DNA of 64,000 bases from positions 96,001 through 160,000 of the forward strand of contig JAXHVD010000002.1 of assembly GCA_034189385.1 (NCBI GenBank), given 5' to 3'. Numbering within the stretch: position 1 is the first letter of the stretch; the number at the start of each line of letters is the position of its first letter. This DNA comes from Thermodesulfobacteriota bacterium (lineage in GTDB: Bacteria > Desulfobacterota > Desulfobacteria > Desulfobacterales > C00003060). The translations under genes were made by a program, and so were the position numbers. Shown here one piece after another: positions 9,266-62,578 of this stretch. Below the pieces are notes generated by a model. It was not told the origin of the DNA. It made no database searches and worked only from the letters and a program-made list of their open reading frames with translations.

Positions 9266-12200
9266 ATGGGCCTTAAAAGAATCAAAAGGTTCCTAGCGAG
9301 AAGAGGAATAACGGGCCTTTACTTTGGAAAGAGTCTGAAGACAGTCCCAGAAGGCTCGCTGGTTCTTTTTCCCTATGAGCCCGACGTGTTGAGCTGCGGG
9401 ATAACCGGTGTCCTGTCCTTTAAGGGAAGGCCTGCCGGAGCCCATGGGCTTCCCATTCAGGATCTCGAGGATAAGATAGAGGCCCTGTCCAAGGTTGCAG
9501 GGCAGAGGCTTGAAGAAAAAGGGCCCCTGCAAGAGAAAGATGATCTTGGCACAACAGAGCTCATAGGTGAGACAAAACACCTCTGCCAGAAGCTTAGGGA
9601 GCATCGGGTTTTCTACGAAGTCTTCTCCCGTCGAGCCTATCAAAAACGACTGACCGACCTCTGTGAGAAGCTTGAGGCGGTCGTGGAGTCTGAAGACATG
9701 GAACGGGCTCGGAGGATAGGACGCCTGGCCGCGGAAGAATGTGAGGCCCTCGCGCAACGAATAACGGAATTGCGGGACATTCTGTGGTCTTTACGGCACG
9801 AGATCATTGAGAACATTGAAAAGATAACTGCCCTTGGACGATTTGACCAGTATGACTGTGACCCCCTCTGTGTAGGGCTCCTGAAGGAGGTCAACATTAT
9901 ATTTAACAACCTTGATCGACTTGAAGTCAGAGGCAGGGATTCTGCCGGGCTCTCTCTCCTTTTCGTCATGGACGAGGCCGCGTTCACTGGGTTTCGACAA
10001 GCATTAAAAGAGGCATCACTGCTTGGTGAGTTTGAGGAAAGACAAGGGAACCCGGTCTTGTTGAATCGCAGCATCGTAACGAATAAGCAGGACACTGGTG
10101 TCTCTGTGATCTTTACCTACAAGGTTGCTGCCGAGGTAGGAAACCTGGGGGATAATGTCCGGTACTTGAGAAATCAGGTGAGAGATGATCTGGTGCTTCA
10201 GCACTGCATGCGGTGCAGTCATGTGTATCACAGTGCCGTGGCCCACACCCGTTGGGCCTCAGTCGGTGAAATCAGCGAGGCCAATTGCCATCCCGTTGAC
10301 AGCTGTCCCAGCGATTCGCCTAGGACCATTCACGTTTGCCTTAATGGAGATATTGATAACTACCAGAGTCTTCGGCAAGATCTTGAAAGAGAAACGGGCA
10401 AGTCTATTCCAGAAGAGATCACCACGGACACGAAGATTATCCCCCTTCAGATAGAGAAGTATCTCAACAAAGGGGAGACCCTTGAGGGATCTTTTCGCCT
10501 TGCTGTCAGCGATTTTGAGGGTTCCCATGCCATTGCGATGCATAGCGATCTGGCTCCGGGCCAGGTTTTTCTGGCGCAAAGAGGAAGCGGGCAGGCTATA
10601 TTTGTGGGTTTGGCGGAAGGTCATTATGTGCCTGCTTCTGAAATATATGGGTTGGTTGAAGAGACCTCTTGTTATGTGAAGATGGATGGCGAGAAAGTGG
10701 TGGAAGGGATATCTGGCAAGACCCAGGGTCAGATATTTGTCCTGGATGGGAATTCTGAAGGGGGGCTCAGTGGCCTGAGGGCCATGTATTATGACGGAAC
10801 GCCTGTTGAGCTTTCTGGGGATGACGTCAAAGAGACGGAAATCACGCCCAGAGATATTGATCGTCAGCATTATCCCCACTATTTCTTGAAGGAGGTCTCA
10901 GAATCCCCCCGGTCGGTGGAGCAGACCATTGAAGGGCGTGTGGCCATCTTAGAAGAAGGTGGGAGGCAACATCCCCAGATATTGCTGGACACCACAGTCA
11001 TTCCTGCTCATCTGGAAGCGGATTTCAGGGAACATAAGATCCGCAGGGTGTTTTTTATGGGCCAGGGCACAGCAGGGGTGGCCGCTTCGGCCTGTGCAGT
11101 GTTTTTGAGAGAGTACTTGAGCCGAACGGAGATTCGGGTGGCCTCCTTTAAGGCCTCTGAATTCAGTGCCTTTGTCTTGGAAGGTCGTCTTGATGACGCT
11201 CTGGTGGTGGCCATCACACAGTCGGGAACAACCACCGATACCAATCGGGCCATTGACATGGCCAGAGAACGGGGGGCCTGCACGTTGGCTATCGTGAACA
11301 GGCGAGATTCTGACATCACCTTTAAGGTGGATGGGGTGCTTTATACAAGTAGTGGGAGAGACATTGAAATGTCTGTAGCTTCCACCAAGGCTTACTATTC
11401 TCAGATTGTGGCGGGCAGCATCTTAGGTCTGAAACTAGGCCAATTGGCGGGGAGTTTGACGGAAGAGTTCATCCTGGCAGAGATAGAGCACCTTTGGAAG
11501 TTGCCTTCGTCTATGAGGAAAGTACTGGAAAGACATACGGACATCGGCGAGTCAGCCGAGAGATTTGCCGTTACAAAGACATATTGGGCTATTGTGGGTA
11601 GCGGTCCCAACAAGGTCTCTGCAGATGAGATCAGGATAAAGCTGAGTGAGCTTTGTTACAAGACCATTTCTTCAGACGTGGTTGAAGACAAGAAACACAT
11701 TGACCTGTCTTCCGAACCCCTGATTTTTGTCTGTGCAGCCGGCAACCGCGAGGATGTAGTCAGTGATATCGTCAAGGACACCGCGATCTTTAAGGCCCAC
11801 CAAGCAGTGCCCATAGTGGTGGCCACAGAAGGTGAACACCGATTTGATCCTTACGCCGATGCGGTAATCTCCGTGCCTGACACAGAGAGCCGGTTCGCGC
11901 CCATCATAAACACCTTGGCCGGTCACCTCTGGGGATACTATGCGGCCCTGGCGATTAACAAAGAATCTCGATATCTGGTGCATTTCCGTGAAGAGATTCG
12001 TGAACATATTCAGGCCTCTACGGGAAAGGGCCTGGATGTATACGAGATCGTGCTGGATGAAGGTTTCAGAGAGAAAGCGGCCGAGTTTTACGGGGTGTTC
12101 AAGGAGCGGATAAGGGAGAATCGTTACGCCACGGCCATGGCCATACGCACGGCATCGGACCTGACGCTGTTGCTGAAGTACCTGGCCGGAAGACTCCCTA

Positions 12201-12955
12201 TCTCAGATTTTGAGTTTGACTTTGGAACCAAAGGGACAGCACCGAATATGTTGAGGACCTTTTTTGAATGCATAGGAAAGATCGTCAACGAATTGGTGCG
12301 ACCTATTGATGCTATTAAGCACCAGGCCAAGACGGTCACCGTGGGAACAAGCCGGATCTCAGAGAAGGTAGAGGGCCTTCTTTTTAAAGCCCTTGAAAAT
12401 CAAGGGTTCAGCAAGAACCAAATTACAACAAGTAATGTCTTGGTCTTAAAGCGTCTACAGGAGGTTCTGAGCGAAATAGCAGGGACGACCCTCTACAAGG
12501 TAGCAGGGCTTAATATTTTGGGAGAGCCCGTTGCAGATTCGACCATACACCTGTTAAAGAAAGAGGGAAGTGCTGAGGCCCTTGTTTCCAGAGTTGAGAC
12601 CGACAACAGACTGCGGGGTACCAAACGGATCATCGTCAAGAACGGAAACATCTTTATTGGCAAGGGAAGAATGGACAACCGGAGTATTCTTGCCGTCCCA
12701 ATTATGTCAACGGGTACCAAGGTCGATCACCTCTTGTTGTTCAATGTAGCATTTAAGGCACAGGTTGAGCTTCAGAAGAAGGTAGATGCCTTAGGGGGCA
12801 AATATCACCACATACGAAACATTGTGGAGGAAACAAGTCTTGCCTGGAAGGATCAGTTTTTGGAATTACTTGATGTGGAGCAACTTTTTGGGATGTCTGC
12901 TGAGAAGATCTCAGAGGCGATTGTTTCCAGTTTGAATAACAGACAAGTATCGTAG
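9266..12955 (+). CDS. Large GlmS-like protein (class II glutamine amidotransferase plus two SIS domains, with insertions and extensions)
   Basis: CGITG, LEVRGRDSAG, AHTRWA, NCHP, NGDIDNY, SQ-like TQSGTTTDT, SVASTKAY, AKTVTVG; 1229 aa. Confidence 0.85.
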   Translation: MGLKRIKRFLARRGITGLYFGKSLKTVPEGSLVLFPYEPDVLSCGITGVLSFKGRPAGAHGLPIQDLEDKIEALSKVAGQRLEEKGPLQEKDDLGTTELIGETKHLCQKLREHRVFYEVFSRRAYQKRLTDLCEKLEAVVESEDMERARRIGRLAAEECEALAQRITELRDILWSLRHEIIENIEKITALGRFDQYDCDPLCVGLLKEVNIIFNNLDRLEVRGRDSAGLSLLFVMDEAAFTGFRQALKEASLLGEFEERQGNPVLLNRSIVTNKQDTGVSVIFTYKVAAEVGNLGDNVRYLRNQVRDDLVLQHCMRCSHVYHSAVAHTRWASVGEISEANCHPVDSCPSDSPRTIHVCLNGDIDNYQSLRQDLERETGKSIPEEITTDTKIIPLQIEKYLNKGETLEGSFRLAVSDFEGSHAIAMHSDLAPGQVFLAQRGSGQAIFVGLAEGHYVPASEIYGLVEETSCYVKMDGEKVVEGISGKTQGQIFVLDGNSEGGLSGLRAMYYDGTPVELSGDDVKETEITPRDIDRQHYPHYFLKEVSESPRSVEQTIEGRVAILEEGGRQHPQILLDTTVIPAHLEADFREHKIRRVFFMGQGTAGVAASACAVFLREYLSRTEIRVASFKASEFSAFVLEGRLDDALVVAITQSGTTTDTNRAIDMARERGACTLAIVNRRDSDITFKVDGVLYTSSGRDIEMSVASTKAYYSQIVAGSILGLKLGQLAGSLTEEFILAEIEHLWKLPSSMRKVLERHTDIGESAERFAVTKTYWAIVGSGPNKVSADEIRIKLSELCYKTISSDVVEDKKHIDLSSEPLIFVCAAGNREDVVSDIVKDTAIFKAHQAVPIVVATEGEHRFDPYADAVISVPDTESRFAPIINTLAGHLWGYYAALAINKESRYLVHFREEIREHIQASTGKGLDVYEIVLDEGFREKAAEFYGVFKERIRENRYATAMAIRTASDLTLLLKYLAGRLPISDFEFDFGTKGTAPNMLRTFFECIGKIVNELVRPIDAIKHQAKTVTVGTSRISEKVEGLLFKALENQGFSKNQITTSNVLVLKRLQEVLSEIAGTTLYKVAGLNILGEPVADSTIHLLKKEGSAEALVSRVETDNRLRGTKRIIVKNGNIFIGKGRMDNRSILAVPIMSTGTKVDHLLLFNVAFKAQVELQKKVDALGGKYHHIRNIVEETSLAWKDQFLELLDVEQLFGMSAEKISEAIVSSLNNRQVS

Positions 12956-14960: not shown

Positions 14961-15467
14961 TTACCTGTACGGGCTCATTTCTCTACAGATGCGGCCGCGA
15001 CAGGTGTGTTCCCCACAGGTCACGGTGCCTCCACAGGTAGCTCCTCCGCTGCCCGCACAGGTGGCCCCGCAGGTAATGTTACCAAAACAGGTTTCGCTCC
15101 CGGCGCAAGTGGTCGTGCCGCGACAGGTAGCTCCTCCGCTGCCCGCACAGGTCACGGCTGTCGTGGCGAACTGTTCCCAGCCGTGATGAACCTCCGCGTC
15201 GGCGAGCTCTATGACTCTTTTGGGCCCGGCGGTGCTGAGGACATTTTCGTTGATATAGGCACCCCGCGGGTCGTAAACCTCCCCATCTAGGGCGATTCTT
15301 GAGCTGCTTAAATCGGACAGGCTCTTGTCCAGCGATGCAAGAAAAAGAGGTGATGAAGAATCCGCATCGCTTGCCGCCCCCGCTCCAATAGACAGAACAG
15401 GAAAAACAAAGAGGCCCGCGACTGCCAGGAGCCAGACGACAAGAAACGATCTCAAGCCCTTTTTCAT
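14961..15467 (-). CDS. Secreted 168-aa protein with C-terminal Thr-Cys repeat core (precursor-peptide-like)
   Basis: GAGGAG RBS before ATG 15467; MKKGLR plus hydrophobic stretch plus AGAA signal peptide; C-terminal 9x TC plus 1 IC. Confidence 0.85.
   Translation of the reverse strand: MKKGLRSFLVVWLLAVAGLFVFPVLSIGAGAASDADSSSPLFLASLDKSLSDLSSSRIALDGEVYDPRGAYINENVLSTAGPKRVIELADAEVHHGWEQFATTAVTCAGSGGATCRGTTTCAGSETCFGNITCGATCAGSGGATCGGTVTCGEHTCRGRICREMSPYR
15033..15152. repeat. Exact 30-bp direct repeat (15033-15062 and 15123-15152), 90-bp period
   Basis: acaggtagctcctccgctgcccgcacaggt occurs twice and encodes TCAGSGGATC on the minus strand. Confidence 0.95.
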
Positions 15468-15537
15468 TTTCTCTTCCTCCTCGGTTGTGGTGCTTGCCCA
15501 AGACAACAATCTTGAAATCACCTTAGAAAATAACATA

Positions 15538-15587
15538 AAAGTAAATATAATTATATTTACTTTAATATAGTTGAGTCCCTATGTCAA
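15538..15587 (-). promoter_or_regulatory. Sigma70-type promoter with overlapping 26-bp perfect palindromic operator
   Basis: Minus strand TTGACA(15587-15582)-17 bp-TAAAGT(15564-15559); palindrome AAAGTAAATATAATTATATTTACTTT at 15538-15563. Confidence 0.8.
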
Positions 15588-15874
15588 GTTTTTTTGAGAA
15601 ATTGTTGGAAGGGTGGAAAGATTTGAAGGCCGTTGATCCGGCAGCCAGCGAAATTCTCTGGGGTTGGCTCCAGCGAAATAGCCAAAAAATAGTTTAATAT
15701 CAACAGATTATATGATATCCCTGGGCTTCTGACAAGAGATTTGACTGAGCCCTCATGGTGGCACCTTGACTCTCAATGAGCCGGGGGGCATCTGGTTTTC
15801 AAGTTCTTGAGGGACCTATTTTGTCCGCCGCGCAAAGGGGATTCGGGGTTCTGCAGGCGTCATCCCGTACAGAT

Positions 15875-18502
15875 TCAGTCACCCACAAGATCGTTCAGGA
15901 TCTTGAAAACGACCCTATATCTGTTCTGCTGGTGCCTGTTCGGGATGGAGCTGGCGTTTCCCAGGCCAACCCCCGAAAATGCCTTAGACATGGTGCAAAC
16001 CCATACCTTTCCTGTGCCAAAGGAGACTTCGGTGAGGCACGGAGCCCAGTGTCTCTCATGGTCCCCCCCATGGTCTTGTGCTGGCGCATACCATAAGCGG
16101 GGCTGTCCGCCCTTTACCTGGCAGATGCCATGGGCGGGGAAGGCAACACTCCGTTCGCTATTTGTCTCTTCAGAGAAGATATATGTGGCATCATCTGCGT
16201 CGCTATTGCCCTCTGAGGTGGTGTAGAGGATTTCTACGGAGAAAGGTTCTAGAAGCTGCCAGGCAAATGAGTCTTCAGCCCTGTCCGACGAATCCAGGAT
16301 TAAGGCCTTGCCACCCTGTGAAATATAGTCTTGAAAAATGGCCAGCTCCTTCTCGGAGAATTTTTTGTGGGGATTGATGATGATGATAGGATCTCTGTCC
16401 TTTTCAAGAGTGCGAACAAAGGAGGGTCTTACTTGCGGCACGATTCCGAGTCTCTGGGCAGAGACGAAAAAGGCACCGTAGTGGAGGGTATGGGTATTAC
16501 TCTTTTCCGGGAACCAGAAACGGTTTGCCAGAAAGATATCGGAGTGCTCACAGTCAAAGGTAATCTTCTGGAAATCTCTGAGCGCCGCAGGTTGTTTGTA
16601 GGACCATCGATGGATCAGGTCCACGTAGTAAGATGAGATGATCACTGTCATCATGAGGCATACAACAATGCTGCTATGATGCCTTCTCAACTCTTCAGAA
16701 GAAGGACTCAGAAACACCGCTAAAATGGCAAGGATACCAGATAGGAGTAACCCATACGGTTTCACATGGGCCCACCATGTGTTGGAGCGATTTAGCCACA
16801 TCAGGCTGTCCAGAAGCAGTTCAGGCTTGCCCTGATAAAACATGCTAAAATTGGACCACACTGTGCTGTCAGTGAAACAAAGGACCCGGCCCTTGCCTTC
16901 AAATGCTCCGGCCAACTGAAGAAAAAGACCAAACTCTCGGTCCTCGTAATGGGCCTCGTCAGGAAAAAAATGCTTGTTCTTATAGTCTGCTAGTCGAGTC
17001 ATCATGCCATAACCTATAATAGGTTTTTCATGCCAGACACGGGCGCTGAGCGTGCATCCAGTGGCGAACAAAATTTCTGGGGTGTGTTTTCCCACGGGAT
17101 GGCCCAGGGTTTTGGGCTGCCTGTAAACCGAAAACTGGCCGTAAATATCCCACTGGCCATTCTTGTCAAAGGACAGACCAAAGCGTTGAGCAAGATCGTT
17201 GAGGTGGGTCGACGTTCCAAAGACATCTGTGTGATCCCCAACGAGAAATAGTCCTCCACCATCATGTACAAAGGCCTCTAATGTTTCTAACTCTTCTCTT
17301 TCATACCTCCGGGTAGGGCACTTGAGGATGATGACATCCTGGTCTGCCAATAGGGCTGATCTTATCTCTTCTGTGTTCACTTTCACCTGATAGTAGTGCT
17401 CAAGAAATGTTCGTAAGCAGTAGTAGTTGTAGGTGGAAGCCATGCCATACCAGTTGGTATCAAAGGGCCGCATGGTCTTTTCCCACTGGCTGTGACTCTC
17501 GTCAATAAGCACCCTCCCGGCGTTCTTCGTTCCGGGATCGGTGAGTGATGATCCCATGATCCCCGCCATGATGGCCATGCAGACCAAGCCGGTCCAGCCA
17601 AGTACCCGTTTCGAAAGGCCCGCCCAGCCCAGACGTACGCGTCCAGTCCAGTTGACCTTCTTTGTCGACAAGGCCAGTCCGACTGCCAAAGGGACGAAAC
17701 TCAGTAGGCCATACACCGCATTCCACATCATGGTGATAGTGGCCTTGTCTGCCCAACCAAGAAAAATCCATAGGGACACAAGATATCGTGCCAACAGATA
17801 AGAGGCCCACAAAAAGAGAATCCTCAGCCAGCCTTTCCACGGCTTGTGTTGCACCATCAGCAACGAGCATAGACTGACACCGATGAGAATGAAAAGCCCC
17901 GGCAAGAGTCCTAAGGCATCTGCTGTGACCTGTATGATTCTGTAATCACCGTTGTAGTTGGCAACAAGGGTATGACCGTTAACAGAACAGGTTGTGCCCA
18001 GGAAGGTGAAAACCGTGGCAGCCAATGAAGCAAGCCAAGAGAGGCCTCGGTCATGACAGCCCAAGTAATACCAAAGGGGGACCAGGAGGCTTTCCACGGT
18101 GAGCAAAAGACCAGAGACCAGAAGCCCTGGGACTAGGGACCGGATAAAGACGCTGTTCCGGCCGCAGCAGAAAAGGGCCAACCCAGAGACAAGAATCCAG
18201 GGGCCAAGGGAGTGCGGATAGGGCATAAGCAGGCCATAAAGGATAAATGGCACAAGGATCCAGAGATAGTCCCATGATATGTCGAGCTGAATATGGCGCA
18301 GGGATATTATGAAAAGCGTCGCACCGCTGACAGCCAAGACATAGCCGAACCATGCTTCATACGTTGCCAGCTTGTAAGTGCTCACATAAACACCAGACCA
18401 ACAGGTCCAGGCGAAGCCCACACAGACGACTCCAAGCCAAAAGAGGACCTTTTTCAACATGTCTTCTCTACTGGTCTGTTTCATAGATTCGCTAATCTTC
18501 AT
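15875..18502 (-). CDS. Polytopic membrane protein: exosortase-like TM domain plus two GATase1/DUF4350-like domains (paralogue B)
   Basis: Many hydrophobic helices in the first ~320 aa; RVLIDESH, FVHDGGGLFLVGDHTD, GKGRVLCFTDSTVWSN; 2 TMs; second domain ITFDCEH...YISQGGKALIL. Confidence 0.8.
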   Translation of the reverse strand: MKISESMKQTSREDMLKKVLFWLGVVCVGFAWTCWSGVYVSTYKLATYEAWFGYVLAVSGATLFIISLRHIQLDISWDYLWILVPFILYGLLMPYPHSLGPWILVSGLALFCCGRNSVFIRSLVPGLLVSGLLLTVESLLVPLWYYLGCHDRGLSWLASLAATVFTFLGTTCSVNGHTLVANYNGDYRIIQVTADALGLLPGLFILIGVSLCSLLMVQHKPWKGWLRILFLWASYLLARYLVSLWIFLGWADKATITMMWNAVYGLLSFVPLAVGLALSTKKVNWTGRVRLGWAGLSKRVLGWTGLVCMAIMAGIMGSSLTDPGTKNAGRVLIDESHSQWEKTMRPFDTNWYGMASTYNYYCLRTFLEHYYQVKVNTEEIRSALLADQDVIILKCPTRRYEREELETLEAFVHDGGGLFLVGDHTDVFGTSTHLNDLAQRFGLSFDKNGQWDIYGQFSVYRQPKTLGHPVGKHTPEILFATGCTLSARVWHEKPIIGYGMMTRLADYKNKHFFPDEAHYEDREFGLFLQLAGAFEGKGRVLCFTDSTVWSNFSMFYQGKPELLLDSLMWLNRSNTWWAHVKPYGLLLSGILAILAVFLSPSSEELRRHHSSIVVCLMMTVIISSYYVDLIHRWSYKQPAALRDFQKITFDCEHSDIFLANRFWFPEKSNTHTLHYGAFFVSAQRLGIVPQVRPSFVRTLEKDRDPIIIINPHKKFSEKELAIFQDYISQGGKALILDSSDRAEDSFAWQLLEPFSVEILYTTSEGNSDADDATYIFSEETNSERSVAFPAHGICQVKGGQPRLWYAPAQDHGGDHERHWAPCLTEVSFGTGKVWVCTMSKAFSGVGLGNASSIPNRHQQNRYRVVFKILNDLVGD

Positions 18503-20954
18503 CTATTGTTCCAACAAGTTTTCTTAGAAAGTAGATGTTTGCCGAGCTTGCCCAATCCAGTTTTTCCAATCGGCCATTGAAGAAGAGGCCGTAGTCTGAA
18601 ATTGCCGTCAATGTGCCTTTTCCAACCTTGCGCTCCACGACAACAGGGTATTTCTCCTTAAATGCCGTACAAAGGATCTCTTCCTCTTTTAGCCCATCCA
18701 CTGCCATTGGATTGGCATTGTACATGAGGATCCCTTCACTGTTGTTTTCAGGGGCAACGGCCCCCAGTGGCGTTGATAGTATTTCCAGTCCATATGATTT
18801 GAGAAAATCCTTTGTCCCATGAGCACAGCGGTCCCCTGACAGCATGACAAGTTGTGCCCCCCTTTTCATGAATTCATCAAGCATACGGCATTCATCCTTG
18901 GAGTATGGTTTTGTCGTGGCCATGCTCATCATTAAGAGGGATTTTTCCAGAGCTCTCTCGTTGAATTGCTTCCAAGCCATGGGGATAAAGCCATTGCGTA
19001 CGAGGCTGTCTACCAAATATGTGTCTCCATCATCCTTGGCATAGCCTTCATGATCGCAAAGGGACATATGGGCATGATCGAGGTATGCAATAGGCCCGGT
19101 GTAGTCATGGTCTTTGTAGCATAAGTGCAACGCCCATTCTCCCATGATAATAGCTGCACTAACGGACAGGATCACCACAGTGACTATGGCAATAGACTGT
19201 TTTTTCCATGGTCCCACCCACAGCGCAAGACCCAGAACCAAGACGAGCACCAAGCCCCAGGGAAGGCCAACGGATTTTCCGTGAACCGCCCACCTGAAAA
19301 GATCAGAGACGTAGCGGTGGCAATAGGGTAGGGAGCCCATCTGTAGCAAGGCTGTGTCTCCAAAGACAATGACTTTGCCGTCTTCCAGTTTAGACTCTGC
19401 TGCCAAAACAATATCGCCAAGGGGTTCGTCTAGGTCGTATATTCGATCGCCGAGGTAGTTCTCTGATAAGGCGTTGGCCCTATCCCCGTCGTCTGAGAAG
19501 CCGTATCTGGCAATAAGAAAAGGGGTCGCTCTATGATTTAAGAGGCGCAATGAGGCGCCCACTGATACTCCCATGCCATCTTTGTCCCAGTCTTTTCTGT
19601 TTATGGGGTGTGGGCGCGTCAAGAAGGCATCGTTCCAGTAGTTGTTTAGAAAATGAGCAGAATCGAAGTTAATGCGGATGGGAACCTCTGACAGTAACTC
19701 ATTAGATCCTTTCATCAAGCCAGACATATCTGTATGATCGGCGAACACCATCAGTGTGCCGCCTTGTCTGACATAGTCATTTAGAATGGAATAGTCTTCT
19801 TCTTTCCATTTCTCGTTGAAGTTCATGACCACAAAGACATCTGCATTTGTTAACATTGCCTTTGATACTTGCCTTGTCAGTTTGACACGAAATCCGAAGC
19901 TTTCAAGGAAATCGGGAAGGACGCAGAAAAGCCCCGGTCTGTTGGTGGTACCAAGCTGTTCAAAGTTTGGTTTGTTCCAGGTCGTGATGCCTCCTTGATA
20001 GAGGACTAGACGACCACTATAGTCTCCTGCCGGCCACTGAGATGTCACATAGGAAACGGTAACCAACAACAACCAGAGGGCTGCAGTTCCAAGGATCATC
20101 TTTTTGCTCGCTCTGTGGGATTTCACTGCCTGCCCTGCGTCAGGTCTTGACGTGCCATGAAGAAAAAAATGGATGATCAAACACTCCATGACAAAGAGTA
20201 TGGGTGTAAAATCCAGGGCGGTGAACCCCTGTTCGGCCATGACGTCCCACGACATGGCTGCTGATCTTCGTTGCGTCATAACATAGGCCAACCATGCCAG
20301 GGATAGAGCCCCAAAATGGTTTACAGACAGCAGCACCACACTGACAACGACACCCCTTTTCCATAATTGGCGGAGCCAAGGGGAAATGCGAATCCACGTA
20401 TAGATGGTGCAGATCGCTAATCCCCACATGCCCATGGCAGTGGGGCCCAATTTCAGAGAAAGGCCAAAGATCCTACCCAGAAGATAGGACGCCTTCCTTG
20501 CGTATCCCTCTATGAAGAACCAGGCCGTTGGAGACAATTCTGCGGCAAGGCTCAATACAAAGTAGGTAAACAGCGTCCACATGATGGCTAGGCGAGCACC
20601 TCTGTGTCTGGGGGCAGCCCTTGGAATTGAAAGGATTAAGGTAAGTAGTGCCAGAAGATATGCCTGGGCCACAATAGGCTTGGTTTGTGGTTCAAGCCGA
20701 GACAAGACGAACAAGAAAGACAAGACAATGAATAGCCAGGACAGTCTTTGGTATGGGGCCTCTTTATCCATCTGACTGGCAGTGACCATTGCCACTGCCA
20801 GGAGAGAGAACAAGACAAGAAGTGCATTTGCCAGGGGCGAAACTCTGAGAATGCTTCCGGATGTGAGCAACACAGCAAAGGAGCTTAACCCAAATAGGAG
20901 TGTATTCGTCACTGCACGTCTCCAGAAGTCACATTGATCAGAAGAGGTCTGCAT
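18492..20954 (-). CDS. Polytopic membrane protein with two GATase1/DUF4350-like domains (paralogue A)
   Basis: N-terminal multi-TM region; YVRQGGTLMVFADHTD, DGKVIVFGDT; 2 TMs; IAYLDHAH...FMKRGAQLV...VGKGTLTAISD; stop overlaps the start of the next gene. Confidence 0.8.
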   Translation of the reverse strand: MQTSSDQCDFWRRAVTNTLLFGLSSFAVLLTSGSILRVSPLANALLVLFSLLAVAMVTASQMDKEAPYQRLSWLFIVLSFLFVLSRLEPQTKPIVAQAYLLALLTLILSIPRAAPRHRGARLAIMWTLFTYFVLSLAAELSPTAWFFIEGYARKASYLLGRIFGLSLKLGPTAMGMWGLAICTIYTWIRISPWLRQLWKRGVVVSVVLLSVNHFGALSLAWLAYVMTQRRSAAMSWDVMAEQGFTALDFTPILFVMECLIIHFFLHGTSRPDAGQAVKSHRASKKMILGTAALWLLLVTVSYVTSQWPAGDYSGRLVLYQGGITTWNKPNFEQLGTTNRPGLFCVLPDFLESFGFRVKLTRQVSKAMLTNADVFVVMNFNEKWKEEDYSILNDYVRQGGTLMVFADHTDMSGLMKGSNELLSEVPIRINFDSAHFLNNYWNDAFLTRPHPINRKDWDKDGMGVSVGASLRLLNHRATPFLIARYGFSDDGDRANALSENYLGDRIYDLDEPLGDIVLAAESKLEDGKVIVFGDTALLQMGSLPYCHRYVSDLFRWAVHGKSVGLPWGLVLVLVLGLALWVGPWKKQSIAIVTVVILSVSAAIIMGEWALHLCYKDHDYTGPIAYLDHAHMSLCDHEGYAKDDGDTYLVDSLVRNGFIPMAWKQFNERALEKSLLMMSMATTKPYSKDECRMLDEFMKRGAQLVMLSGDRCAHGTKDFLKSYGLEILSTPLGAVAPENNSEGILMYNANPMAVDGLKEEEILCTAFKEKYPVVVERKVGKGTLTAISDYGLFFNGRLEKLDWASSANIYFLRKLVGTIDED

Positions 20955-22594: not shown

Positions 22595-25246
22595 CTAGAG
22601 AAGGGCGTGTAACTTCCGCAATACCCCTTCGTATTCGTCTCTGCGGAAGCAGAAGTGCAGTTCCGAGAACCTTTCCCGCAAGGCCTTGACCTGATCGGTG
22701 ACATGGGCATTGTTCATGACCACGTCATGAATCAGGCCTGCCAGGGTCTGAAAATCTTCTTCCCGCATACCGAAGCGTGTCATTTCCGAAACGCCCATCC
22801 TGAGCGCCCCTGATGCAGTAAACCCCTCTTCATCTGTGTTCGCCTGGTAGTTGCAGATGATGTTGTTCGCTTCCAGGCGCCTTGCCATTTCAGGGCCGTG
22901 ACTGTAACCTACATCTATGACTACCTGGTGGGTCTCCGTAAAGTCTATGGCCGGATCACCTGCCACATCCAGCCCTGCATCCCTTAGGGCCCGGGCAAAG
23001 GCCTTGGCATTTGAAATGACCTGGGGTTGGTATTGGCCCTTAAAGTAATTCATCTCATACGTGGCCATGAGAAGCCCTACTACAGTGCCGAGGTGGTGGT
23101 TGGAGACAGATCCAGGAAAGGCACGGCGAAGGAGGGACTCCCACAGTTCATATTCCTCTTCGTTTTCTTTAAATCGACTACCCACAACACCACGTTGGGT
23201 CCCGAAAAAAGTTTTGTGGGTCGACCCAGTGACCAGATCAGCACCTTCCACAAAGGGTTCCTGAAAGTGAGGACCAAGGAGCCCCAGTACATGGGCCATG
23301 TCGTACATGACCATGGCACGGATGCCTTGCCTGTCCAGGAACTGGCGAATCTCCGCCACCGGCTCCTTGTGAAGGACCATGCTCTTTCCAAATATGATCA
23401 ATTCAGGTCGGTACTCCTCTATCAATTCCAGTGTGGCTGGGACATCGGTTTTAAAAGGGTTGTCAGGCAATACAGGGAACTTCACAACGGCCGGACGCTC
23501 TGTGCGGGGATTGCGGGCCACGAAGTCCTTAAGAGCTCCCATGGGCTGAGCACTCAGGTGCCCCCCCTTGCCGATGTGACTATTCATGACGTGGTGAATA
23601 CGCCGCGGCTCCACCTTTCGGTCCGTACGATTGATATAATCCACCATGGCGCTGAAGACGGCCGTGTTGGCCATCTGCCCGCTTACTAGGCGCAATTCCA
23701 CATTTTCGCAGCCCAGGTATGCCAGCATTTCCTGTTCCAACATCCGCTCGACCTCGTCGATGAAACCGGTCCCCTGGTAATAGAAGATCTCGGCATCATA
23801 GAAGGCCTTGGCCTTTTTGTGCTCGGCATAACGAAAGGCCGGGTCCATGACCGAGACCAACCGCGCCATAGGAGAAGGCGTCATCTCAGAGGGGATGAGA
23901 TTGATACACTCCCGTTGTCTCCAGAGGGTGTTTTCCAAGGTTTTTCCCAGCAGCCTTTCCACTTTGGCAGATGTATCCCCTGTGGGAAGCTCCTTGGCAG
24001 GCAGCTCGAAGTCGAAGAGGATGGGACGGACATAGGGCGGCGCATCTCCACGCATGTGAAAGGGCACCACCACGGCGTCTACCAACTTGCCCCTGATTTC
24101 TATGGTCAGCTTATCCTCTTCGATGATGTCACTGTCTAAGTATCCCAGACAGATGGAGCGGAGCTGACGTTGGTCTGTCTGCGCAGATTCAAGTCCCTCG
24201 CCCTCCACAGTCCACATGGGAACCATGGTACCGCTGGTGACGTAACCGACGTGCTTGTCCTGTTTAAAGACCTTGGCGCCTTCACGGGCGATCCCTCGGC
24301 CTGACACGGCGATGGGCTGGCTGATACGGGGAAGATCTTGGTTAAGGGAATAGTCGCGCCTCATGATTCTCTTAAAGGCCTCGTGCTGCCTGGTGAGTTC
24401 CTTGCGACCTAAGAACTCCCCCTTAAGGGGGGAGAGACTTACAGCAAACTTGGCAAGAGGACAGGCAAATATGGGGATTTCTTTGCCCTCCGGGTCTTCA
24501 CCCAATTCATGTCCGTAAAGCGGAAGGGCCGCCTCTAGCCTGAGCGTATCCCTGGCGCCCAGTCCGATGGGAGTCGCCCCTTTTGACAGGATCAGGTCCC
24601 ACAGCATGGGACCGTCTGCTCGGTCGGCGAAGAGCTCAAAGCAGATCGGCTCCCCTGTATAGCCGGTGCGGGAGACCTTGACCGTGGCACCTGCGATGGT
24701 CACCATGCCTACAGTGTTTCGCATGGGTTCCGGCAGTTGGCCGGACTCCACGATCTCTTGCATCACGTGACGGGACATGGGCCCCTGGAAGGCCAGCATG
24801 GCGATTTCCTTGGTGCGATCAATCAGTTCAACGTCGTCGAACTCCTTTAAGAGCGGCTGGAAGTGGTTCCAGGCCTTCTCACGGTTGGAGCCGTTTACCA
24901 CCAGAAGATATTCGTCCTCCACAAAGCGATAGAGGTAGGCGTCGTCCACAGCGCCGCCCGTTTCGTTGGGAATCATGGTATACTGAGCGCCCGTCTCCCT
25001 GATGTCCAGGGCTTCGGCGTTATTGGTCAAGACATGTTGAAGAAACCTCAATGCCCCATCCCCGCGGACGATGAATCGGCCCATGTGGGAAACGTCAAAA
25101 AGCCCTCCGCTCTTGCGCGTGGCAAGATGCTCCTCCACGATACCGCTAGGATAGAAAATGGGCATTTCCCAGCCCACAAATTCTACTATCTTGGCGCCCA
25201 AGGCCACGTGTTGGTCATAGAAAACGGTTCTTAGAAGTTCGCTCAT
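22595..25246 (-). CDS. gcvT-glyA: Fusion of glycine cleavage T-protein (aminomethyltransferase) and serine hydroxymethyltransferase
   Basis: N-half FDVSHMG, SRTGYTGE, GLGARDTLRLEA; C-half INLIPSE, GGHLS, YDMAHVLG, GSTHKTFFG, SNHH, LRMG. Confidence 0.92.
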   Translation of the reverse strand: MSELLRTVFYDQHVALGAKIVEFVGWEMPIFYPSGIVEEHLATRKSGGLFDVSHMGRFIVRGDGALRFLQHVLTNNAEALDIRETGAQYTMIPNETGGAVDDAYLYRFVEDEYLLVVNGSNREKAWNHFQPLLKEFDDVELIDRTKEIAMLAFQGPMSRHVMQEIVESGQLPEPMRNTVGMVTIAGATVKVSRTGYTGEPICFELFADRADGPMLWDLILSKGATPIGLGARDTLRLEAALPLYGHELGEDPEGKEIPIFACPLAKFAVSLSPLKGEFLGRKELTRQHEAFKRIMRRDYSLNQDLPRISQPIAVSGRGIAREGAKVFKQDKHVGYVTSGTMVPMWTVEGEGLESAQTDQRQLRSICLGYLDSDIIEEDKLTIEIRGKLVDAVVVPFHMRGDAPPYVRPILFDFELPAKELPTGDTSAKVERLLGKTLENTLWRQRECINLIPSEMTPSPMARLVSVMDPAFRYAEHKKAKAFYDAEIFYYQGTGFIDEVERMLEQEMLAYLGCENVELRLVSGQMANTAVFSAMVDYINRTDRKVEPRRIHHVMNSHIGKGGHLSAQPMGALKDFVARNPRTERPAVVKFPVLPDNPFKTDVPATLELIEEYRPELIIFGKSMVLHKEPVAEIRQFLDRQGIRAMVMYDMAHVLGLLGPHFQEPFVEGADLVTGSTHKTFFGTQRGVVGSRFKENEEEYELWESLLRRAFPGSVSNHHLGTVVGLLMATYEMNYFKGQYQPQVISNAKAFARALRDAGLDVAGDPAIDFTETHQVVIDVGYSHGPEMARRLEANNIICNYQANTDEEGFTASGALRMGVSEMTRFGMREEDFQTLAGLIHDVVMNNAHVTDQVKALRERFSELHFCFRRDEYEGVLRKLHALL

Positions 25247-61314: not shown

Positions 61315-62578
61315 TTGAAGGCATTATCAGCCATAAAGCCTGTCAGTTGGATGAAGGTAGCACTCTACGGGCTTTTGCTTAGGGGTGGTTATCATTCCAC
61401 GCTTACATACCTCATTCGACACTGGTCGAGAGACGATTTTACTTACTGCCCTGGACGGGGCTCTTATGCTTTTCCTTGGGCATTGCCTTTTTCTGGCTGG
61501 GAGAGCTTGGCGGGGAGTATTTAACCCTCTACCTGTCTGTGTGGCTGGTCCTGGTGGGCCTTTGCTGGTTTCACCTGGGGTGGCAGAAGCTTAAAATCAT
61601 TGCCTTTCCTCTGGTCATGGCCTTGGCCATGTTCCCTTTGCCCGGCTTTCTTTACGGGAAGATCTCCGTGCAGTTGAAACTGATCTCCTCACACCTTGGC
61701 GTAGCCATGATGCAGCTGTCCGGCATGTCCGCCTACCGGGAAGGAAATGTCATTGACCTTGGATTTACGCAACTCCAGGTCGTGGATGCCTGTAGCGGGC
61801 TCAGATATCTGATTCCCTTGATCGTCCTTGGCGTCCTTCTGCCTACATGTTCAAGGCGGTCCTCTGAAAAAGGGCGGTGGTGGTCCTTTCCACGGTGCCC
61901 CTTTCCATCATTACGAACAGCCTGCGCATTGCCTTGACGGGCATTCTGTACGAAGTAGCAGGACCAAGGGTGGCGGAGGGCTTCTTCCACGGATTTTCGG
62001 GGTGGTTTATCTTTATGTTTTCTCTGGCAGTACTGCTTGCGGAGATGAAGGTTCTGGGGTTTCAGTTCAAAACAGAGGGCAGAGGGCAGACGGCAGAGGA
62101 CAGTGACGAGGAACAGGAGGCTCAAGGCTCAAGGCAAGAGGAAGCTGAAGGCTCAAAGCTGAAGGCTGAAAGCAATAAACGTGACGGAAACAGTCCGCAG
62201 GGCCGTTCTAGTCCTTTGAGCTTTCAACTTTCAGCTTTCAGCTCCTTTTTTTCTCCTCCTCAGTTCATGGTGGCAGTCATTCTTCTGGGGCTAACCTTTG
62301 GCCTTTCACAAGGCGTGGAATTTCGTGAGAAAATTCCCATCAGCAAGTCATTTGACTACTTTCCAATGGAGGTGGGGGCGTGGTCTGGAAAGGCTCAGAC
62401 CATGGAACAGCGGTTTGTCGATACCCTGGACCTGAGCGACTATGTGCTTATTGACTACAAGGATCGCGGGGGCCGCATTGTGAACTTTTATGTGGCCTAT
62501 TATGAGAGCCAGAGAAAGGGAGAGTCCATCCACTCGCCGGCCACGTGTCTGCCCGGTGGCGGATGGCTGTTCAAAGAG
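61315..62578 (+). pseudogene. Exosortase-EpsI fusion pseudogene
   Basis: REGNVIDLG..QLQVVDACSGLR, NSLRI, FFHGFSG, EpsI IHSPATCLPGGGW; frameshifting deletion near 61449, -1 frameshift near 61841, in-frame TGA at 61865. Confidence 0.88.

Follow-up and report, generated by a model that had tools for sequence, protein, structure and literature searches.

A Thr/Cys-rich precursor gene and a paralogous pair of GIFT-domain protein genes form a patchily distributed three-gene system

A small gene on the minus strand of a 64,000-nucleotide stretch of a Thermodesulfobacteriota contig (the window, meaning the whole stretch analysed) encodes a protein, P0001, whose cysteines almost all directly follow a threonine, raising the question of what this arrangement is for and which proteins act upon it. 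An initial annotation had read the product as a tripartite precursor consisting of a signal peptide, an acidic leader and a Thr/Cys core, and both its composition and nine homologues support this layout (Table 1). Translation confirmed the ten Cys that had been counted, nine of them preceded by Thr and the last (C161) by Ile, as well as the Cys-free stretch of about 105 amino acids, the first Cys being residue 107. The GAGGAG ribosome binding site was likewise present, as GAGGAGG 8 nt 5′ of the ATG. Residues 1–31 are basic and then hydrophobic, ending in A-G-A with 3 K/R and no D/E, and residues 32–101 are mildly acidic (12 D/E, 5 K/R). Overlooked at that stage were the SPLF-helix motif of the leader, residue Thr102 and two partner genes.

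We identified nine homologues of P0001 among 253 candidates (43–96 % identity). The T-C columns, a leader motif S-P-L-F-x-A-S-L and Thr102 are kept across all nine, so that the TC register is conserved and Thr102 is invariant in the ten-sequence alignment. Synonymous to non-synonymous codon changes within the core, counted against two relatives, were 26:4 and 23:5, a pattern indicating that the core is under purifying selection, and by its sequence the ORF is a real gene. Among 55,847 six-frame segments of the genome it was the sole one exceeding 4 TC per 60 amino acids, with nine against four in the runner-up. Four sigma-70-like sites were found in the region versus 0.6 in shuffles, two of them on the minus strand upstream of P0001. 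A longer start at 15536 (191 amino acids) was dropped, as homology and the ribosome binding site point to 15467. P0001 had no Pfam or NCBIfam match, a search of the ESM Atlas with residues 33–168 returned no usable match, and its AlphaFold model was uninformative (pLDDT 41), with a low-confidence helix at residues 41–55.

Table 1 Positions of the precursor gene, its expression signals and the two partner genes within the window
Feature	Position	Strand	Basis
P0001 precursor gene, 168 aa: signal-like segment, leader, Thr/Cys core	14961..15467	-	translation, homologues, alignment, codon changes
Predicted signal peptide, residues 1-31; putative cleavage after A-G-A; no lipobox Cys	15375..15467	-	hydropathy, composition
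S-P-L-F motif of the leader and the amphipathic helix predicted after it, residues 39-53	15309..15353	-	alignments, profile searches
Thr/Cys core, residues 102-161, from Thr102 through nine T-C units to Cys161, which has no Thr before it	14985..15164	-	alignment, composition
Shine-Dalgarno-like GAGGAGG	15476..15482	-	sequence
Sigma-70-like promoter match, 10/12	15559..15587	-	motif match
Sigma-70-like promoter match, 11/12	15707..15735	-	motif match
Subunit A (P0011, 875 aa): about 9 TM helices, GIFT 1 (invariant His424, GDHT), 2 TM helices, GIFT 2	15875..18502	-	family scan, model, alignment
Subunit B (P0012, 820 aa): paralogue of A, same layout	18492..20954	-	family scan, alignment

Upstream of P0001 and on the same strand lie two overlapping genes encoding proteins termed here subunits A and B, each with DUF4350/GIFT matches. 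The layout of subunit A, running from about nine membrane helices through GIFT 1 and a further two helices to GIFT 2, is taken from a model with a pLDDT of 91, and the GIFT domains of the two subunits are paralogous (hhalign 99.8 % and 99.3 %). The PF14258 (GIFT/DUF4350) profile matched each of the 54 members. Positive charge sits in loops 2, 4, 6, 8 and 10 of these 54 sequences, from which the positive-inside rule predicts an outward orientation for both GIFT domains. In both subunits GIFT 1 carries invariant G-D-H-T and D-S/T motifs and GIFT 2 a conserved His; invariant residues of subunit B include His407, Asp431, Asp488, Glu510, Asp533 and His629. The GIFT part of A shares its fold with IFT52 (Z 22.1), site-1 protease (Z 19.5) and OST48/Wbp1 (Z 18.3; Foldseek, VIA) as well as with GldG, although the GldG model scored 29 bits against a cut-off of 390 bits, and a BFVD search with subunit A returned GIFT-level matches only. 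The pair differs from these proteins in having two GIFT domains per subunit, in its obligate-looking pairing of paralogues and in the invariant GDH(T), D-S/T and D-x-S-H motifs; in IFT52 the corresponding strand of the aligned domain ends without a D-H. By our reading the G-D-H of GIFT 1 presumably falls where class I amidotransferases bear their nucleophile.

The membrane domains show a weak likeness to exosortases (ESM Atlas 0.79, to be taken as a lead only), and one explanation is that they cleave or lipid-anchor the precursor, or cut its repeats into small cyclic (lactone-type) peptides. Compared with 30 exosortases, hhalign gave E-values of 0.01 and 0.006, reversed profiles giving 0.06 and 0.4, with a probability of 4–6 %; the weak profile match to exosortase/archaeosortase (PF09721) is in register with the V..C-S-G segment, and subunit A keeps the exosortase Arg (R239, 98 %), which is absent in B. 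A dedicated pairing with motif-bearing exported targets is a further likeness, and some neighbours of the pair in archaeal-looking loci end in a Cys and a TM helix. However, the catalytic triad of exosortases is Cys-Arg-His (Haft bioRxiv 10.1101/2023.06.07.544157), and the triad Cys is missing from both subunits, its position being occupied by Ala, Lys or other residues in A and by Ala in B; the His position is Trp in A in an alignment read by eye. The target motif here is N-terminal rather than a C-terminal sorting signal, the domain is fused to two GIFT domains, the precursors bear anchors of their own (T9SS, SLH), and units that overlap could not all be cut out and closed into rings. No exosortase family of Pfam or NCBIfam was among the families listed for the 54 members and no PDB entry matched the membrane domain among the whole-model matches listed. 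We regard a sortase-like activity as very unlikely.

Does the pair belong with the precursor? Subunit A has at least 251 relatives, and a metagenome scan in which 471 of 562 candidate stretches were confirmed and 80 kept provided, together with four genome loci, 84 loci for comparison; a scan of genome contigs with one protein as query yielded one locus. B is directly upstream of A in 69 of the 84; a further 14 loci are truncated within 700 nt, which leaves L022 as a true exception. A leader-bearing or partial Thr/Cys protein is encoded in 44 of the 84 and in 15 of the 22 that have at least 1.5 kb on both sides. Except for generic regulators and transporters, no other neighbour recurs across the 84 loci. 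Source names include Desulfobacterota, KSB1, Eisenbacteria, Ignavibacteria, Bacteroidota and Dehalococcoidales, with Clostridia for precursors.

Subunit A was found in 4 of 401 genomes of the phylum and 3 of 61 relatives, with 1 of 36 in the genus apart from the genome studied here, and its distribution is therefore patchy. A precursor was found in all six of the pair-bearing genomes found. The leader profile (E < 0.001) matched exactly those four of the 401 phylum genomes that have A, three of the four leaders having been in the profile, and weaker leader matches (E 0.002–0.04) occurred in 13 genomes, none with a Cys-rich tail. A profile of the TC core, which covers TC-type cores, matched 1 of the 401 and 2 of the 61 genomes; each of these carries the pair, and none of the pair-lacking genomes in the two sets was matched. 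When 1.84 billion representatives were searched with the leader alone, 12 matches came back, comprising five repeat artefacts, four fragments of 48–82 amino acids with the leader and three longer proteins, all three of which carry TC cores. In genome G444 a single precursor adjoins the pair, its leader being missed by the profile because the precursor start falls in an assembly gap. Genome G413 has two precursors, one of them unlinked (G413:C1:3386-4063, L153), and that of G141 (contig C27, L154) was not among the sequences that make up the leader profile, is on another contig from the pair and has a core of the spaced type described below, with a Thr at -8 of every one of its 68 Cys. Precursor genes located so far from the pair imply that a single pair can act on more than one substrate, or on substrates not linked to it.

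P0001 is thus one part of a three-gene system with A and B. The initial annotation had expected a modifier that was non-canonical or encoded elsewhere; the second of these now seems unlikely, and the modifier is probably the adjacent pair (15875-20954), which co-occurs with precursors across phyla. That A and B process these precursors in some way we consider highly probable.

Precursors at the partner loci range from 100 to 1300 amino acids with cores of up to about 120 Cys. Among 20 scanned, seven carry T9SS, SLH, Ig-like or GEVED tails, and the leader and core of these 20 had no Pfam or NCBIfam match. A T-T-W-G-x-x-K tail, likely a C-terminal sorting signal, ends the precursors L030:5835-7443, L041:7087-7923, L075:4726-7127 and L084:6813-7475 and is common to the L030 precursor and a neighbouring non-repeat protein. 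Two copies of the leader motif are found in L038:1777-5709, L081:2127-4970 and P0144. The seven well-flanked loci without a precursor are L042 and six of one clade which, judged from the neighbours, is archaeal-looking; L085 and L086 of this clade have a Cys-rich core. In certain archaeal-looking loci the gene after A (L078:8058-8741, L082:7810-8538, L031:6486-7157, L051:6842-7534) encodes a signal, an SPLF-like motif, and a single Thr/Ser..Gly-Cys unit ahead of a C-terminal TM helix, the unit of L078 and L082 being T-x-N-P-x-G-C-like. These single-unit proteins may represent a substrate in its minimal form, or else a sorting signal.

To describe the pairing of Thr with Cys we utilized one precursor per 55 %-identity cluster of subunit A, using 25 of 43 (17 TC-type, 8 other), together with a held-out set of 12 proteins that came from later, other searches, eight of them being related SLH-type proteins and pair linkage forming no part of their selection. 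In the first set Thr precedes 528 of 577 internal Cys versus 5 of 15 last Cys, and in the held-out set 171 of 206 internal versus 2 of 12 last Cys; the per-protein P values for this end rule (about 2e-6 and 2e-7) are overstated because repeats and kin are not independent. At the other end, 19 of 21 complete cores have a Thr 4–10 residues ahead of their first Cys, the opening Thr often occurring as P-T (13 of 25). First Cys not preceded by Thr (6 of 15, and 10 of 12 held-out) mostly have Ser instead, and those with neither (4 of 15 and 3 of 12) are not significant. After a lone Cys, that is one without Thr or Ser before it, followed by a gap of at least 7, a further Thr follows in 21 of 22 instances, versus 8 of 28 after T/S-C. 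A Thr downstream of the last Cys occurs in 7 of 21 cores of the first set and 8 of 12 held-out proteins. The cores are thus not plain (TC)n arrays, and as read from these patterns a lone Thr opens a block and a lone Cys closes it.

In six of the eight other precursors almost every Cys has a Thr 8 or 9 residues before it, and two short ones have no clear offset. Within this spaced class, Thr at -8/-9 was counted for 30/31, 8/8, 13/14, 73/85, 79/80, 71/73 and 74/90 Cys, with almost no TC, and both types of unit occur within the mixed proteins L030, L041 and L075. Because a class of precursors has almost no TC yet keeps Thr at this distance, the unit is likely a Thr and a Cys 4–9 residues downstream, and not the adjacent T-C dipeptide. 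The earlier suggestion of a repeated modification site is supported, with a thioether as the best fit among the chemistries considered, and the assignment of that site to adjacent Thr-Cys pairs gives way to the spaced pattern. Applied to P0001 the rule gives ten intervals of 5–9 residues, T102-C107 to T155-C161. Matching each Cys to an upstream Thr succeeded for 905 of 919 Cys and was complete in 18 of 25 proteins, compared with 841 of 919 and 6 of 25 in the reverse direction, the latter being nearly as good overall because Thr is so abundant.

A core of this kind could also be an unmodified thiolate cage or a mineral-nucleating surface peptide, metallothionein-like, with the pair loading metal or keeping Cys reduced. 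Dense Cys, sources in anaerobic sediment, sludge and gut, and GIFT His/Asp/Glu residues that are invariant and could bind metal are consistent with this, as is the upregulation on pyrite of the Cys-rich protein CrpA, reported in PMC13692751. It leaves unexplained, however, one upstream Thr per Cys over spacings from 3 to 14, the opening Thr and the closing lone Cys; the core has no CxxCH and no His ligands, and such a cage would be compatible with the thioether reading only if some Cys stay free. We judge it improbable.

The commonest Cys spacings are 6 (230 gaps) and 4 (201 gaps), and in P0001 they are irregular (8,6,6,6,4,8,6,5,5). Beetle antifreeze protein is a disulfide solenoid with Thr arrays, a regular Cys period and an even Cys count, and the core might similarly be a disulfide-laddered beta-solenoid with the pair as a folding or oxidation aid. 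The frequency of the six-residue period and the even count of P0001 (10) fit such a structure, as opposed to its uneven spacing, the odd counts of 16 of 21 and 6 of 12 cores (22 of 33), which show no preference for even numbers, and the replacement of Thr by Ser and not Val: of 56 substitutions 21 were Ser (10 of these from one protein), one Ile and none Val; at -1 of Cys, Ile and Ala each occur 8 times in one held-out protein. A search for DsbB alone found it in 0 of 4 pair-bearing genomes versus 6 of 14 controls. A solenoid seems to us the faintest of the alternatives.

Spacings of 6 and 4 also correspond to C-X4-[S/T]-C and C-X2-[S/T]-C, the consensus of POFUT1/2 (PMC11990869), and the pair could be a protein O-glycosyltransferase, or another transferase using a lipid-linked donor, that decorates the Thr of each unit and leaves Cys disulfide-bonded or free. 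The interchange of Thr and Ser fits such an activity, and the GIFT domains resemble that of OST48/Wbp1 of oligosaccharyltransferase, for which sugar binding has been proposed (PMC7226087). O-fucosylated EGF and TSR repeats thus share the spacing and the secreted setting; the POFUT systems nevertheless depend on a soluble fucosyltransferase and on a disulfide domain that has folded, and their consensus predicts a lone Cys first and a T-C last, the opposite of the block ends observed here. A Thr fixed at -8 of Cys is not needed by glycosylation alone, and no sugar-pathway gene recurs near the pair. GT-C enzymes combine multiple membrane helices with an outer domain, a layout that we count in favour of glycosylation; no GT-C family or chain was among the matches listed for the whole-model searches, which barely probed the membrane domain. 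Glycosylation of the unit Thr is in our estimation unlikely.

A spare Thr at the opening and a spare Cys at the close fit a chain of overlapping rings from each Thr to a downstream Cys, and extracytoplasmic thioether stapling by the pair is the activity we tentatively favour, at slightly short of an even chance. Leader binding, catalysis by the pair and the type of bond are what we infer in the following outline. P0001 is predicted to be exported, and its SPLF-helix leader would dock on a two-subunit membrane complex of A and B, which would join each core Thr (sometimes Ser) to a Cys 4–9 residues downstream, outside the cytoplasmic membrane. The bond would most likely be a methyllanthionine-type thioether ring, and P0001 would acquire ten such overlapping rings, T102-C107 through T155-C161. 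As a guess, the exosortase-like membrane domain could supply a lipid-derived group that activates the Thr hydroxyl without ATP, and elimination followed by Cys addition might take place at the GIFT His/Asp sites. Anaerobes would in this way gain a rigid scaffold, on the surface or secreted, that withstands reduction, with candidate roles as a stalk, a metal binder or, for short members such as P0001, a released peptide. Against thioether formation stand the GIFT domains of solved relatives (IFT52, OST48/Wbp1, site-1 protease), which are non-catalytic or proposed to bind sugar, the equal match of periods 4 and 6 to the eukaryotic O-fucose consensus, the 7 of 22 well-flanked loci without a repeat precursor, the frequent Thr after the last Cys in the held-out set (8/12), the first Cys that often lack a Thr, and the reverse matching of Thr to Cys that succeeds nearly as often. 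A more specific proposal, a heterodimeric membrane enzyme that combines a disarmed exosortase-like domain with catalytic GIFT domains, reads a leader after export and forges from tens to more than 100 Thr-Cys rings in surface and secreted proteins, we regard as possible, with doubt outweighing confidence; the same applies to its forming rings without ATP, tRNA or radical SAM, as an anaerobe's substitute for disulfides.

The closest parallel in layout is with lanthipeptides such as nisin (LanB/LanC, LanM), which similarly have a leader followed by a Ser/Thr- and Cys-rich core with Ser/Thr N-terminal to the partner Cys. Rings D and E of nisin, Thr23-Cys26 and Thr25-Cys28, are interlocked and read as lone Thr, T-C, lone Cys (PMC6964739), the same order in which the putative thioethers would lie here. 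The present system differs in having a signal peptide ahead of the leader, cores of up to about 120 Cys that are often fused to surface anchors, and partner proteins in the membrane with GIFT domains predicted to face outward. To our knowledge (methyl)lanthionine synthetases are all cytoplasmic and use ATP/GTP or glutamyl-tRNA. LanC and LanB (PF05147, PF04738) were found in 0 of 4 pair-bearing genomes, in a search in which no control genome matched either, and no Lan synthetase recurs among the neighbours of the 84 loci. The system would work in a lanthipeptide-like manner if the thioether reading holds; we do not class it as lanthipeptide because no synthetase was found and the bond is deduced from sequence.

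Other modifying families were sought in the same way. No radical SAM family recurs beside the pair in the 84 loci; SPASM genes are present in 4 of 4 pair-bearing genomes, unlinked, three of them in the genome studied here, with the nearest about 15 kb away. This radical SAM/SPASM gene (G000:C12:94517-95866, minus strand) lies just left of the window, with no sign of a link to P0001. YcaO matched 1 of 4 pair-bearing genomes, on other contigs, and 5 of 14 controls, and none was encoded with a precursor. CrpA of Methanococcus voltae, in which the radical SAM enzyme CrpC forms ranthionine crosslinks within a Cys-rich repeat protein, is the nearest protein-scale precedent. CrpA is, like the partner precursors, large, repetitive and Cys-rich with an N-terminal recognition region (PMC13692751), and it is thioether-crosslinked by a neighbouring enzyme, as is proposed for the trio. 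CrpC differs in being a radical SAM/SPASM protein acting on C-X-X-Q/D, with Cys before the acceptor, whereas here Thr comes before Cys.

No family model was found for the system, and a literature search, made mostly outside subscription papers and supplements, found no description of the trio, with which the Cys-rich data set of the CrpA paper could overlap. An outward-facing membrane enzyme that forms Thr-Cys rings would, if confirmed, represent new chemistry and the first catalytic role for GIFT/DUF4350 domains, and could provide a tool for stapling secreted proteins. Even with a different bond, the three genes define a widespread, unannotated system of leader-directed maturation. The P0001 locus is a good test case, having a short substrate with 10 Cys, no anchor domain and three adjacent genes.

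A number of other features were observed within the window. A GlmS-like protein of 1229 amino acids (9266-12955, plus strand) is about twice the usual length, with N- and C-terminal extensions of roughly 300 amino acids outside the glmS match (321-897). An 883-amino-acid ORF (22595-25246, minus strand) appears by eye to be a glycine-cleavage T protein fused to a serine hydroxymethyltransferase-like domain. At about 61446-62053 (plus strand) a match to exosortase (PF09721) is split over two frames, one with a TGA, and a whole copy is located on contig C8.
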